From: an uncultured archaeon
Lineage (GTDB): Archaea > Iainarchaeota > Iainarchaeia > Iainarchaeales > 0-14-0-20-30-16
Direction: 5' to 3'
Assembly: GCA_964565125.1 (NCBI GenBank)
Contig: CAZMCX010000030.1
Coordinates: 2,172-8,574, forward strand
Length of the DNA stretch: 6,403 bases
The stretch's first letter is position 1, and each line of letters begins with the position of its first letter. Under the pieces are notes generated by a model that saw nothing but the letters and a program-made list of their open reading frames with translations, searched no databases and was not told the origin of the DNA. A program made the position numbers and the translations under genes. Below, in pieces: positions 2,511 through 5,289 of this stretch.

Positions 2511-3665
2511 ATGAAGAGTCTATTAAACAACGCGATAATAAAGGCAAAAGAAGAAGCCAAGAAGCCGGTTTCAGATAAGAGAGCGAATTCTGCTGTTGAT
2601 GAAGATATTATTAGGGTTTTAGAAGAGTCAAAGGCAAAGATTAAAGTTTTCGGTGCAGGTGGTGCAGGCGGAAACGCAGTAAATAGAATGAAGGAAAGCG
2701 AAATAGATAGTGTTGAACTTATTGCAGTTAATACTGATGCCCAAGCATTAATTAGTAATATTGCAGATAAGAAAATATTAGTTGGAAGAAAATTAACAAA
2801 AGGGTTGGGTGCAGGCTCTGAGCCAAATGTTGGTGAAGCCGCAGCAAAAGAATCAAAAACAGAATTAGAAAAAGAGATTAAAGGTTCTGATTTGGTTTTC
2901 ATTACTTGTGGGCTTGGCGGTGGAACAGGAACTGGTGTTGCGCCGGTAATTGCAGAAATTGCAAAAGAGAATAGTGCGTTGACTATTGCAGTAGTAACTT
3001 TGCCATTTACAGTAGAAGGAAGAGTAAGAACTGCTAATGCTTTAGAAGGATTAAAAAAATTAAGAAGTGTTGTTGACACAGTAATTGTGATCCCTAATGA
3101 TAAGATACTTGAAATTGCGCCGGATTTACCATTAAACACAGCATTTAGGGTTGCTGATGAAGTTTTAACAAATGCAGTTAAAGGAATTGCAGAAATGATC
3201 ACAAAGCCGGGATTGATTAACTTGGACTTTGCAGATTTAAGAACAATAATGAGTCGGGGTGGGGCAGCAATGATTGGTTTAGGGGAAAGTACTCCTGAAG
3301 CAAATTCAACTGATCGGGCGCTATTGGCTGCAGAGAATGCATTAACATCTCCTTTACTGGATATTGATATTTCAAAAGCAAAAAGGGCTTTAGTAAATGT
3401 TGTTGGTGGAACAGATATGAGTATTAAAGAAGCCCAAACTATTGTTGAAGCAGTAGCAAGTAAGATTGATCCCGAAGCACATATAATTTGGGGTGCTATG
3501 ATTGACCAGGAGATGGCAAAAACACAGATTAGGGCAATGATAGTAATTGTTGGTGGTTATTTCCCTTATATTGATGGACCTGTGACAGGAAAGTCTGATA
3601 AAACAAAGTTTAGAGATTCTGATGACGAAGAATTAGATGATTTTGATATAGGCTATACAGGTTAA
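2511..3665 (+). CDS. ftsZ: Cell division GTPase FtsZ (tubulin homologue), probably FtsZ1-type judged from the ftsZ-secE-nusG linkage
   Basis: 384 aa. Contains the motifs GAGGAGGNAVNRM, NTDAQAL and the tubulin signature GLGGGTGTGVAPVIAEIAKE, plus VVTLPFTVEGRVR and the C-terminal peptide EELDDFDIGYTG. The ftsZ-secE-nusG order is a known conserved archaeal arrangement. Confidence 0.97.
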   Translation: MKSLLNNAIIKAKEEAKKPVSDKRANSAVDEDIIRVLEESKAKIKVFGAGGAGGNAVNRMKESEIDSVELIAVNTDAQALISNIADKKILVGRKLTKGLGAGSEPNVGEAAAKESKTELEKEIKGSDLVFITCGLGGGTGTGVAPVIAEIAKENSALTIAVVTLPFTVEGRVRTANALEGLKKLRSVVDTVIVIPNDKILEIAPDLPLNTAFRVADEVLTNAVKGIAEMITKPGLINLDFADLRTIMSRGGAAMIGLGESTPEANSTDRALLAAENALTSPLLDIDISKAKRALVNVVGGTDMSIKEAQTIVEAVASKIDPEAHIIWGAMIDQEMAKTQIRAMIVIVGGYFPYIDGPVTGKSDKTKFRDSDDEELDDFDIGYTG

Positions 3666-3678
3666 AATAAGCAGAAAT

Positions 3679-3712
3679 TAAGTGAGTTGTATTTAAAAAG
3701 ACAATCCACTTA
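3679..3712. promoter_or_regulatory. Imperfect inverted repeat enclosing a TATA-like TATTTAAAAA box; candidate secE promoter, operator and/or ftsZ 3-prime hairpin
   Basis: TAAGTG-a-GTTGT (3679..3690) pairs with ACAAT-c-CACTTA (3701..3712), giving 11 pairs including one G-T, plus a 1x1 mismatch. The loop carries TATTTAAAAA (3690..3699), which predicts a TSS near 3720-3725, just upstream of the hairpin element. Confidence 0.4.
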
Positions 3713-3738
3713 TTAGGTATTAAAAAGTGATGTTATGG

Positions 3739-3783
3739 CAAGTTTGAGTTTATGCTCAAAATCGCAAAAACATCAAACAGGAC
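3739..3783 (+). promoter_or_regulatory. Conserved structured element, copy A (secE leader)
   Basis: CAA-GTTTGA(3742-3747)-GTTT(3748-3751)-A-TGC(3753-3755)-loop tcaaaatc-GCA(3764-3766)-A-AAAC(3768-3771)-A-TCAAAC(3773-3778)-AGGAC. About 38 of 48 aligned positions are identical to copy B at 5219..5266, with the same secondary-structure geometry. Confidence 0.6.
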
Positions 3784-3807
3784 ATCAAAATATGGAATGT
3801 GATTTTA

Positions 3808-3969
3808 ATGGCAAATTTAATTGAAAATTCAAAAAGAGTGTTTACTGTGGCTAAAAAACCAGATAAACAAGAGTTTTGGGGTATTGCTAAGTCAACAGGC
3901 TTAGGGATATTATTTATTGGGCTTGTTGGATTTATAATTTATTTGATATTTCATTTCTTCTTGTTATAG
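3808..3969 (+). CDS. secE: Protein translocase subunit SecE / Sec61-gamma (below the ORF-track size cutoff)
   Basis: My own translation gives MANLIENSKRVFTVAKKPDKQEFWGIAKSTGLGILFIGLVGFIIYLIFHFFLL*, 53 aa. The RV..V.KKP.K.EF..IAK.TGLGI..G..GFII pattern and single C-terminal TM helix are typical of archaeal SecE. SD GTGAT-TTTA-ATG precedes it. It sits between ftsZ and spt5 as in other archaea. Confidence 0.85.
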   Translation: MANLIENSKRVFTVAKKPDKQEFWGIAKSTGLGILFIGLVGFIIYLIFHFFLL

Positions 3970-3981
3970 ATGTGATTATTT

Positions 3982-4419
3982 ATGATGTTTACTTTGAGAA
4001 CAATGTATGGAAGAGAAGAGTTAGTTGCATGTATCCTTAAGAAAAAAGTTGAAGATGAAGGGCTGGCAATTTATTCTGTAATTATGATGCCAAATGTTAA
4101 AAACTACCTTTTGGTTGAATCTGATAATGAAACAACTCTGAAAAGAGCAATCATAGATATTCCTTATGTAAGAAAAACAAATATTACTGTCGGAAATGTG
4201 AGCCAGGAAGAGTTGAAATCTTTGCTAAAGGTTGAGCCTATGATGCAGAAACTTGATGTTGGAATAGTAGTAGAAATAAAGAATGGATACTTAAAGGGAA
4301 GTAGGGCAAGAGTAGTAAGAGTAAACCCAACAAAGGAAGAAGTAACTGTTGAGGTACTTGATGCTGCGGTTAAAATCCCTATAACTATTAAAGCTGAGAG
4401 TGTAAAAATAATAGAGTAA
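3982..4419 (+). CDS. spt5: Transcription elongation factor Spt5 (archaeal NusG), NGN plus KOW domains
   Basis: 145 aa. The N-terminus FTLRTMYGREELVA is the NGN opening, comparable to archaeal IFAVRTT.GQE. The C-terminal KOW is GIVVEIKNGYLKGSRARVVRVNPTKEEVTVEV. SD GTGAT (3972..3976) lies 5 nt upstream of the ATG. Confidence 0.93.
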   Translation: MMFTLRTMYGREELVACILKKKVEDEGLAIYSVIMMPNVKNYLLVESDNETTLKRAIIDIPYVRKTNITVGNVSQEELKSLLKVEPMMQKLDVGIVVEIKNGYLKGSRARVVRVNPTKEEVTVEVLDAAVKIPITIKAESVKIIE

Positions 4420-4453
4420 ATTTGCTTTAATTTCTTCATAAATAAGGCATATC

Positions 4454-4479
4454 TTTATAAACATATATTTGCCTATAAA
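4454..4479 (+). promoter_or_regulatory. Two candidate TATA boxes (TTTATAAA 4454..4461 and CTATAAAT 4472..4479) upstream of rpl1
   Basis: These A/T-rich octamers lie in the 112-nt spt5-rpl1 spacer. They follow a T-rich tract after the spt5 stop (TTTGCTTTAATTTCTT) that could act as an archaeal oligo-T terminator. Confidence 0.35.
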
Positions 4480-4489
4480 TTACCAATAA

Positions 4490-4520
4490 GCCTAGTTTTA
4501 GGCCGTACTGCATATTGCAG
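4490..4520 (+). promoter_or_regulatory. Twin short hairpins in the rpl1 leader; the second abuts the SD
   Basis: GCCTA-gttt-TAGGC (4490..4503) and CTGCA-tat-TGCAG (4508..4520). The SD GGAGG is at 4520..4524, so G4520 is shared by the stem and the SD. The TTG start is at 4532. Confidence 0.45.
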
Positions 4521-4531
4521 GAGGTTTTAAC

Positions 4532-5191
4532 TTGAATAAAAATTTAGTAGAATTCTTGAAAAAAGTGGTAGTAGAGTCTAAACCAAGAAAATTCCCACAA
4601 TCAATAGACGTTAGTATCAACTTTAAAAATATAAACTTTAAGCAACCTCAGAATAGAGTAGAAGTAAATGTTGAAATACCAAAGCCTTTTGGAAAAAAGA
4701 TGAGGGTTTTACTATTTGCTTCAGATCAAGGTGTAAAGAGCGAGTTAAAAGATGTTGCTGAGAAGATAATTGGAATTGAAGAGATACCTAATCTGGATAA
4801 GAAAGCAATAAAGAAAATTGCTGTTGGTTATGATTTATTCTTTGCGGAGAATAAAGCTATGCAAACTGTTGGTAAGTATTTAGGACAGACTTTAGCTCCA
4901 AGAGGAAAAATGCCGAAGTTGGCTTTAGCAAATAAAAACGCAATGTTGGCCCTGATAAACAAGGAGCAAAACTCTATAAAAATAACAAACAAAAAAGGTA
5001 AGTTTTTGCCAACAGTACATTTTAAGATTGGATACGAAAAAATGTCTGCAGAAGATTTGGCAATGAACTTGGGGGCAGCAATGGAGAAATTGATTGCGGC
5101 TTTGCCATCTAAAGAGCAGAATATTAAATCAATTTATGTAAAAACTACAATGGGAACAGCATCACAAGCAGATATTAAGTTTTTCTTGTAA
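4532..5191 (+). CDS. rpl1: 50S ribosomal protein L1 (uL1), TTG start
   Basis: 219 aa. PRKFPQSIDVSINFKNI, VEIPKPFGKKMRVLLFA, YDLFFAENKAMQTVGKYLGQTLAPRGKMPK match the conserved uL1 blocks (F.ES.D..I.L and LG..LGPRGKMP). A strong SD GGAGG lies 7 nt upstream of TTG. Confidence 0.93.
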   Translation: MNKNLVEFLKKVVVESKPRKFPQSIDVSINFKNINFKQPQNRVEVNVEIPKPFGKKMRVLLFASDQGVKSELKDVAEKIIGIEEIPNLDKKAIKKIAVGYDLFFAENKAMQTVGKYLGQTLAPRGKMPKLALANKNAMLALINKEQNSIKITNKKGKFLPTVHFKIGYEKMSAEDLAMNLGAAMEKLIAALPSKEQNIKSIYVKTTMGTASQADIKFFL

Positions 5192-5204: not shown

Positions 5205-5218
5205 GTGATATTTATGAT
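5205..5218 (+). repeat. Left copy of the perfect 14-nt direct repeat GTGATATTTATGAT (decoy SD plus ATG)
   Basis: Identical to 5276..5289, which is the genuine rpl10 SD, spacer, ATG and next 2 nt. The two copies are 71 nt apart and bracket hairpin copy B. Confidence 0.85.
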
Positions 5219-5266
5219 CAAGTTTGAATTTATGCTCACAAGGTTCGCAGAAATGTCAAACAGGAC
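5219..5266 (+). promoter_or_regulatory. Conserved structured element, copy B (rpl1-rpl10 intercistronic spacer)
   Basis: CAA-GTTTGA(5222-5227)-ATTT(5228-5231)-A-TGC(5233-5235)-loop tcacaaggttc-GCA(5247-5249)-G-AAAT(5251-5254)-G-TCAAAC(5256-5261)-AGGAC. This is the same architecture as copy A. Confidence 0.6.
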
Positions 5267-5275
5267 CATAAAAAG

Positions 5276-5289
5276 GTGATATTTATGAT
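5276..5289 (+). repeat. Right copy of the 14-nt direct repeat; this is the real rpl10 ribosome-binding site and start
   Basis: GGTGAT (5275..5280), spacer ATTT, then ATG at 5285. Confidence 0.85.

Follow-up and report, generated by a model that had tools for sequence, protein, structure and literature searches.

Two intergenic hairpins of closely similar sequence stand upstream of secE and of the gene for ribosomal protein P0 (L10) in the window analyzed here, the whole 6,403-nt stretch of contig CAZMCX010000030.1 from an uncultured archaeon. Are they conserved leaders that regulate a ribosomal protein cluster, as the initial annotation of this DNA proposed, or do they belong to something that moves? 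Copy A (3739-3783) and copy B (5219-5266) match in sequence and share a common fold, and their likeness is far beyond chance. Collectively, our structural and comparative analyses make it probable that both are members of a family of mobile hairpin leader cassettes, targeted to the start sites of genes, in a narrow clade of DPANN archaea that carries the NCBI label 'Candidatus Diapherotrites archaeon', the label under which the FtsZ of the window's organism is listed. Our confidence in any particular mechanism of mobilization is much lower than our confidence in the nature of the element.

Hairpins flanked by repeated initiation regions

Alignment and folding agree with the initial annotation on the positions of the two copies, on their common fold, and on their location in the 5′ leaders of secE and P0, where both lie on the sense strand upstream of the gene. 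In copy A, the closing C–G pair is followed by a 2x2 loop (AA/AG), a 6-bp stem (GTTTGA, 3742-3747; TCAAAC, 3773-3778), a 1-nt 3′ bulge, a 4-bp stem (GTTT, 3748-3751; AAAC, 3768-3771), a 1x1 loop, a 3-bp stem (TGC, 3753-3755; GCA, 3764-3766), and an 8-nt terminal loop. The predicted minimum free energy of this structure is -11.8 kcal/mol (z = -4.75); that of copy B is -8.4 kcal/mol, with a z of -1.42 that is not significant alone. The compensatory pair that had been singled out, G3748:C3771 versus A5228:T5254, is a true double change, and the two remaining differences are located in the internal 1x1 loop and in the bulge. With its filters off, a covariance model built partly from copies A and B matches the window at exactly two places, 3732-3789 and 5212-5272. 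Within copy A, ACATCAAA is repeated exactly at 3770-3777 and 3782-3789, 12 nt apart, spanning the 3′ arm and the tail.

The AGGAC that ends the annotated element had been read as single-stranded, which the folds contradict: its AG is opposite AA in the 2x2 loop, the G that follows has the C in CAAG as its partner, and the tail (ACAT in copy A, ACCAT in copy B) base-pairs with the ATG immediately upstream of the hairpin, forming an outer helix of the form ATGnnC/GnnCAT. This upstream ATG belongs to a feature that the initial annotation did not contain, a direct repeat around each hairpin. Copy A is flanked by GTGATGTTATGGC (3727-3739) and the similar GTGATTTTAATGGC (3799-3812), and copy B by two occurrences of GTGATATTTATGAT, 5205-5218 and 5276-5289, identical at 14 of 14 positions. 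Each repeat covers the stretch between the Shine-Dalgarno (SD) sequence and the ATG, and thus each hairpin lies between two copies of the SD-to-ATG segment of its downstream gene, an orphaned one on the left and a functional one on the right (Table 1).

Family distribution, orthologous sites, and targeting

A pattern taken from the hairpin core alone, and therefore free of context, was used to scan metagenome contigs. It returned 40 loci containing 22 distinct true copies of the family represented by copies A and B (family 1), and 21 of these 22 stand directly 5′ of the start of an open reading frame (ORF), in the orientation of the gene (one of the 21 is cut by a contig end). The downstream genes encode SecE, P0, ribonucleotide reductase (RNR), the RNA polymerase (RNAP) subunits RpoA′ and RpoL, MCM, and a PCNA-like protein, as well as the ribosomal proteins S4e, uS4, and L37Ae, SBDS, a type IA topoisomerase (TopA), a methyltransferase, an FAD protein, and hypothetical and membrane proteins; a family 1 variant at locus L167b precedes the gene for an Lrp/AsnC regulator. 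With about 11 units of sister families, among them units 5′ of S6e and RpoB′, the whole comprises 22 distinct family 1 copies and those sister units. The longer contig L001, from the same organism as the window, has beside copies A and B a third copy 5′ of the RNR gene, in which the inner stem reads TGT/ACA, not TGC/GCA.

The copies at start sites share one layout: a left segment SD-spacer-ATG-n(1-2), the hairpin C-AA-GTTTGA-RTTT-N-TGY-loop-RCA-R-AAAY-N-TCAAAC-AG-G, a tail n'n'-CAT-(C)AAAAT..., a right segment SD-spacer-ATG-nn, and then the gene. The unit measures about 66-75 nt. Exact flanking repeats were found around copy B (14 nt), copy D (15 nt), L156 (13 nt), L158 (14 nt), L168 (22 nt), L148 (23 nt), and L151 (29 nt); in other copies the repeats are degenerate.

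Comparison of orthologous sites bears on mobility. In the window and L001, the secE and P0 starts are filled (both by family 1), as is the RNR start, and the spt5 start is empty. In the closest relative, L130 (89% L1 identity), the secE, spt5, P0, and RNR starts are all empty: a single SD-ATG stands at secE, P0, and RNR where the organism of the window has two, and the segment at 3727-3738 has one occurrence only at the empty site. The initial annotation had proposed orthologous leaders as the touchstone of a regulator, and the secE, P0, and RNR leaders of this relative lack the element. In L126/L127 (73% L1 identity), secE, spt5, and RNR are empty and P0 is filled by a family 1 variant with the exact 15-nt repeat GTGATACTTATGATC; in L171 (72% L1 identity), secE is empty, spt5 carries two tandem units, and P0 carries two units of two other families. 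At P0 of the more distant L172, L173, L176, and L177 (<=55% L1 identity) the site is empty, and L1 and P0 overlap or lie 2-6 nt apart. The presence of different family members at P0 in three lineages implies that this start has been occupied independently at least three times. Differences extend to strains: L001 and L174, 99.5% identical over 12.7 kb, are distinguished by a single 66-nt unit at the start of RNR, bordered by an exact 31-nt repeat and explained by strain-level gain or by precise loss. The RNR leader of L001 holds a tandem arrangement, a family 1 unit followed by a family 4-like unit (6587-6652, stem CAATTTC/GAAATTG), and it is the latter that L174 lacks. The empty orthologous sites and this strain-level difference together indicate that the element behaves as mobile DNA. 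The selfish repeat that the initial annotation had entertained as an alternative is thus borne out as far as mobility and multiple copies are concerned, but its expected scatter outside leaders is not, since nearly every copy sits at a start codon.

Several regularities bear on how the site is chosen. The left junction always falls 1-2 nt past the ATG, and at spt5 past the second ATG of ATGATG, where the tail of the units reads CATCAT, facing ATGATG. Complementarity between a tail and the left flank of the same copy exceeds that between the tail and the flanks of other copies (8.04 vs. 6.95 of 11 positions, permutation p = 5e-5), and L167 and L170, whose cores are near-identical, carry AA/TT and TT/AA, respectively. 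The SD of the left flank is of GTGAT type in 15 of 24 cases, as against 6 of 29 other native starts (p = 0.004), so that the enriched form of recipient is a GTGAT-N3-5-ATG initiation region. Right-hand regions are more uniform than native starts, with GTGATTTT-ATG in 8 of 24 versus none of 29, and strings of tail plus SD can be nearly identical between unrelated genes, as in copy A and L133. The tail type of copy A (CATCAAAAT...) is common to copies at other genes (L133, L156, L167b). The distance from the core end, or hairpin foot, to the real ATG has a median of 25 nt and a range of 18-26 nt; in 19 of 28 units it is 25-26 nt. Exact repeats extend from 13 to 31 nt and are longest where the recipient already had a tail, in the tandem units of L151, L171, and L001.

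These observations suggest a model in which the unit would insert, in the sense orientation, 1-2 nt past the ATG of a gene. Because the SD-to-ATG segment occurs on either side of the hairpin, an intact ribosome-binding site (RBS) and start codon remain to the gene downstream of it, and the orphan upstream ATG would be masked by pairing with the CAT of the tail, which lengthens the hairpin. Targeting may proceed by base pairing or short homology of the cassette's tail and SD-spacer-ATG module with the initiation region of the recipient, preferentially one of the form GTGAT-N3-5-ATG, and copying may occur by template switching or recombination between start regions, with crossovers wherever the recipient matches, which would explain the 13-31 nt spread of repeat lengths. 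The junction, the tail match, the target bias, the spacing, and the repeat lengths appear to fit such homology- or complementarity-guided copying better than a transposase with a fixed stagger; an alternative is a dedicated or structure-specific integrase that makes staggered cuts, possibly with guide pairing. The complementarity of tail and flank could itself reflect a guide, the choice of donor, or post-insertion selection. Two other routes were considered and rejected. If the target were copied afresh in inverted form upon insertion (fold-back synthesis), the tail would be explained, but copies with perfect repeats show 1-3 mismatches between tail and flank; because of these mismatches, and because types such as that of copy A are common to unrelated targets, the tail looks inherited, not freshly copied. 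Integration of a circle with one SD-ATG, of the Campbell type, cannot yield the exact native repeats on both sides of copy D.

Taken to its full extent, the model would describe start-codon-homing leader cassettes: elements targeted by base pairing or homology with no fixed-stagger transposase (for example by template switching), bringing their own SD and AUG and a foot recognizable by protein, which repeatedly rewrite the leaders of core informational genes and may in doing so set up a translational regulon dependent on the hairpin. We offer this composite picture tentatively, as less likely than not.

Structure, function, and rival explanations

The hairpin structure is under selection. Among 21 distinct family members, 291 of 291 pair cells are standard pairs (100%), and covariation is without exception at the two stem positions not fixed by the search pattern (AU in 16 and GC in 5; CG in 16 and UA in 5), with all four combinations of the two pairs represented. 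Sister families recovered via the covariance model have the common layout and shape built on other stems (GAAG.../...CTTC, GTTG.../...CAAT, and GAAA-G-CAATTTG.../...CAAATTG-TTTC), and compensatory changes separate them (CAATTTG/CAAATTG, CAATTTC/GAAATTG, CTTTTTG/CAAAAAG). Across all four families the foot is invariant: a C-G pair comes first, then a 2x2 loop of purines in which AA faces AG, then G-C or G.U. The core ends read CAAG...(C/U)AGG. When G.U and A.C are counted by strand, the only exceptions in the core are of G.U type on the sense strand (copy D and the closing pair of family 3); the outer extension gives no clear signal. Two sister-family loci deserve mention in their own right. At L134 (143-260), two tandem family 4 units are flanked by a sequence in which the 'ATG' reads TTTTGG, probably an old, decaying insertion. 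At L142 (4525-4581), a family 3 unit stands at the start of an ORF whose first domain is Rpb2 domain 4 and which represents the C-terminal half of a split rpoB; by bringing an SD and an ATG of its own, such an element could in principle give rise to gene splits or stabilize them.

Folding predictions describe what the cassette may do in RNA. The orphan upstream AUG is paired with the tail at a mean predicted probability of 0.58 (0.98 in copy B), compared with 0.18 for the real AUG, and in most copies the real SD-AUG is predicted to be largely free of the tail. In L134, L144, L146, L143, and L133b, the predicted partner of the tail is the real AUG, which leaves the SD in the loop, and an on/off alternative through tail pairing is therefore conceivable as a modeled possibility. 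Insertion is probably near-neutral for the host, and the added structured 5′ module may modulate translation or mRNA stability.

Several points weigh against a mobile, start-site-targeted cassette. One family 1 copy, at L155 (11349-11411, minus strand), does not occupy a start codon: it runs opposite to the neighboring gene, lacks a flanking ATG repeat, has 2 extra stem nucleotides, and lies between a tRNA-Arg gene, 31 nt from its 3′ end, and a gene start. The search relied on the family 1 core as its anchor and on short metagenome contigs, which limits what can be said of copy number per genome and of the share of copies away from starts. At single sites, gain and precise loss between direct repeats are indistinguishable, and in copies with perfect repeats the pairing of tail and flank is still imperfect. 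The short contigs available yielded no transposase, integrase, or autonomous parent element, nor does a transposase gene adjoin the element on them; the mechanism of mobilization is accordingly inferred. Lastly, the absence of broken pairs and the excess of informational genes among the hosts (ribosomal proteins, RNAP, MCM, PCNA-like protein, RNR) could mean host use. Beside the L155 copy, a small extra palindrome, CAAACAAGTTTG, was also seen.

Host use is the substance of the strongest competing explanation, in which an element of mobile origin is now functional: a trans-acting protein or RNA would bind the hairpin with its conserved foot, the tail would switch between orphan and real AUG, and the whole would be a portable translational or mRNA-stability module serving a post-transcriptional regulon of growth genes. 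The intact pairing of all 21 copies and the foot kept across four families are what such a module would show, as are the constant spacing of about 25-26 nt to the real ATG, a tail complementary to both repeats with real-AUG pairing predicted in the five loci named above, hosts rich in ribosomal protein, RNAP, and replication genes, and the independent occupation of the P0 start in three lineages. Yet L130 lacks the element at three sites and 99.5%-identical strains differ, so no single copy is required; a fold required for mobility would be conserved just as well; the alternative pairing, weak and A/U-rich, is the predicted ground state in only a minority of copies; and we know of no factor that binds the hairpin. 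We consider this explanation unlikely as a whole, although a co-opted regulatory role and a mobile cassette can both hold.

Much less probable is an element that acts at the level of DNA, be it as a palindromic operator to which a dimeric transcription factor binds or as a mobile promoter with the TTTAT of the 5′ arm as TATA box. The inverted repeat GTTTGA...TCAAAC around TTTATG in copies A and B and the location upstream of genes would suit it, but the TTTAT varies (TTTGTG or TTTTTG in other family 1 copies) and is missing in families 2-4, the spacing of the arms follows the loop length (5 to 14 nt), and the inner stem shows covariation that a duplex operator does not need. Moreover, the G.U-type pairs (copy D and the closing pair of the families) and the strict co-orientation point to a folded sense strand.

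The explanation put forward in the initial annotation, a conserved cis-regulatory leader of the ribosomal protein and secE-spt5 cluster acting as an rRNA mimic bound by L1, P0-P1, or L11, now has very little to recommend it. Both window copies do lie in the secE and P0-P1 leaders, and S4e, uS4, L37Ae, and S6e are further ribosomal protein hosts. Against this, the hairpin is not in the orthologous leaders of close and distant relatives; it precedes many non-ribosomal genes, among them those for RNR, RpoA′, RpoB′, RpoL, MCM, PCNA-like protein, TopA, SBDS, methyltransferase, and Lrp/AsnC; and it is bordered by duplicated target sequence and varies in presence between strains. What stands of the proposal is that the RNA is real, structured, and undescribed; its identity as a ribosomal protein operator does not. 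That it belongs to no named RNA family was also correct, as nothing in Rfam at E <= 10 overlaps the element and no leader family was matched. Full-text literature yielded no description of such an element, a scan of a viral-contig collection gave 0 matches, and a looser pattern, CAAGTTTGAN{20,40}TCAAACAGG, over a genome collection gave 119 loci that are essentially all chance matches in unrelated bacteria, the one match in Pacearchaeota (L064) lying within a coding region.

Equally improbable is a device based on an upstream ORF (uORF) or translational bypass, in which initiation at the upstream ATG would produce a coupled leader peptide or a hop over the hairpin. The upstream ATG has its own SD, the hairpin lies between identical ATGnn sequences, and the uORF of copy B stops at TGA 5277-5279, inside the real SD; but that of copy A runs to 3822-3824, beyond the real ATG, and the frame through the conserved nucleotides of copies A and C differs from that of copy B. 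A conserved leader peptide is thus excluded, the upstream AUG is mostly predicted to be paired, and the complete SD of the downstream start makes a bypass unnecessary. Three known structures were rejected outright: the folds have a 2x2 loop, a 1-nt bulge, and a 1x1 loop in place of the two 3-nt bulges separated by a 4-bp helix of an archaeal bulge-helix-bulge intron; they lack the defining bulges of a kink-turn; and the ends depart from the R''(RYYYAAC)...R'(GTTRRRY) consensus of integron attC sites, whose R''/R' boxes lie at the 3′ end of gene cassettes, with sister families devoid of GTT/AAC and a location 5′ of housekeeping genes.

A mobile cassette of this kind has consequences beyond the window. 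The genomes of DPANN archaea, tiny and dense with genes, have almost no room for selfish DNA, as the overlapping or abutting L1 and P0 of the relatives illustrate; landing on a start codon and regenerating the RBS solves this problem of space, and we found no such solution described. Targeting to 1-2 nt past the ATG, duplication of an RBS, a target-complementary tail, and constant spacing to the real start are likewise absent from the Rfam, viral-contig, and full-text literature searches. Should targeting by base pairing be true, it may lead toward a new insertion mechanism. The cassette alters the 5′ leaders of essential genes (P0, SecE, RNAP, MCM, ribosomal proteins), and it does so differently in near-identical strains, thereby providing a natural experiment on archaeal translation initiation as well as a strain-level marker. 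There is also a caution for regulatory-RNA scans, in that a two-copy hairpin in ribosomal protein leaders, complete with a compensatory change, can be a mobile repeat.

Genomic setting and comparison with known systems

Table 1. Positions of the cassette segments and genes in the window
Feature	Position	Strand	Remarks
ftsZ	2511-3665		
Copy A, left (orphaned) secE initiation region	3727-3738	+	SD GTGAT, spacer, ATG 3735-3737, then G
Copy A, hairpin core CAAG...CAGG	3739-3781	+	C3739 paired with G3781
Copy A, tail	3782-3798	+	ACAT opposite upstream ATGG, then A-rich filler CAAAATATGGAAT
Copy A, right (functional) secE initiation region	3799-3812	+	SD GTGAT, spacer TTTA, ATG 3808-3810, then GC; direct repeat of 3727-3739
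secE	ATG 3808		
spt5	3982-4419		
L1	4532-5191		
Copy B, left (orphaned) P0/L10 initiation region	5205-5218	+	GTGATATTTATGAT, ATG 5214-5216
Copy B, hairpin core CAAG...CAGG	5219-5264	+	Layout as copy A; 4-bp stem ATTT/AAAT, 11-nt loop
Copy B, tail	5265-5275	+	ACCATAAAAAG; CCATAAA paired with TTTATG of left repeat
Copy B, right (functional) P0/L10 initiation region	5276-5289	+	SD GTGAT, spacer ATTT, ATG 5285-5287, then AT
P0/L10	ATG 5285		
P1	6113-6403		

The genes around the two copies have features of their own. In many archaea the L11 gene lies between spt5 and L1; there is none in that interval of the window (4420-4531), and L1 starts with TTG after a GGAGG SD sequence, both traits being kept in L126 and L130. 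L175, a strain variant with 21 differences from the window, ends L1 with TGA at 5190 where the window has TAA, and its public gene call fuses L1 and P0 into a 518-aa product that reads through the element. The P0 ATG is in frame with L1, and the sequence between the two genes, which does not differ between L175 and the window, is interrupted in frame by TGA at 5225, which makes the fusion look like an artifact of gene calling or genetic code. The RNR of the window's organism (L001, 6653-10201) has 1182 aa and an intein with a LAGLIDADG domain, and that of the 73%-identity relative (L126, 4384-6579) has 731 aa and no intein; inteins also occur in the MCM gene of L173 and apparently of L177. Between P1 and RNR, L126 has a 235-aa ORF (3449-4156) made almost wholly of ~30-nt tandem repeats that encode 'GY.A.DLK..'-like units, and this ORF is not in L001 or L130. 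In L172 (9397-9877), a 50%-identity relative, genes for a ParE-type toxin and HNH/Schlafen-like proteins lie directly upstream of L1, in place of the ftsZ-secE-spt5 neighborhood.

Among known systems, the bacterial L10 leader and the Methanococcus L1 mRNA site are the ones that the locus first brings to mind, since here too a structured RNA lies in the leaders of L1/P0/P1-cluster genes. Those leaders are rRNA mimics that are conserved between orthologues and limited to their own operon, whereas the present hairpin is missing in close relatives, precedes unrelated genes, and has no Rfam match, and so departs from them in three respects, orthologue conservation, operon restriction, and Rfam assignment.

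By analogy, the cassette appears to work like a non-autonomous palindromic mobile repeat, of the type of miniature inverted-repeat transposable elements (MITEs), repetitive extragenic palindromic (REP) sequences, Correia elements, or Rickettsia palindromic elements (RPEs). Like a MITE, it is short, non-coding, and multi-copy, its arms form an inverted repeat, and its insertions are polymorphic with empty sites. It differs from a MITE in having, in place of a fixed short target duplication (2-10 bp), exact repeats of 13, 14, 14, 15, 22, 23, 29, and 31 nt that all cover the SD-to-ATG segment. Unusually long duplications recall casposons, with their 14-15 bp target duplications, and the spacer integration by CRISPR Cas1 that duplicates a whole repeat: four of the seven exact repeats listed above are 13-15 nt long, and the tandem units resemble repeat-insert-repeat arrays. 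Unlike those systems, however, the cassette has repeats that range over 13-31 nt (22-29 nt for the other three of the seven) and inserts that are conserved hairpins rather than diverse spacers, and no Cas1 gene was seen on the short contigs.

REP/REPIN sequences, mobilized by RAYT, and the palindromic elements derived from IS200/IS605 (PATEs), all of them dependent on HUH Y1 enzymes, are also short imperfect hairpins in which structure rather than sequence is kept by compensatory changes. REPs are extragenic and mostly 3′ of genes, occur in both orientations or as inverted pairs, have a GTAG head, and cause no target duplication; the cassette has 21 of 22 copies co-oriented at gene starts, ends of the form CAAG...CAGG, and long direct repeats. 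IS200/IS605 elements insert 3′ of a tetra- or pentanucleotide with no duplication, the site being read by guide pairing within the element, a process that the tail-target complementarity of the cassette resembles; the direct repeats around each unit set it apart from this group too, and no RAYT or TnpA gene was seen on the short contigs.

The Correia/NEMIS elements of Neisseria, MITEs that are cotranscribed with genes, resemble the cassette in being small, non-coding, multi-copy, palindromic, strain-polymorphic, and often located upstream of genes as an mRNA-leader hairpin. They are 100-155 bp long, carry a fixed TA duplication, and insert in either orientation, whereas the cassette is 45-60 nt plus a tail, almost always co-oriented 1-2 nt past an ATG, and distinguished by SD-to-ATG flanking repeats of 13-31 nt and a target-complementary tail. 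RPEs offer a parallel in circumstance, as selfish palindromic repeats of a reduced genome that survive in essential genes without loss of gene function. They do so by inserting in frame inside ORFs and being translated; the cassette, in contrast, stays outside the ORF through its duplicated RBS and start codon.

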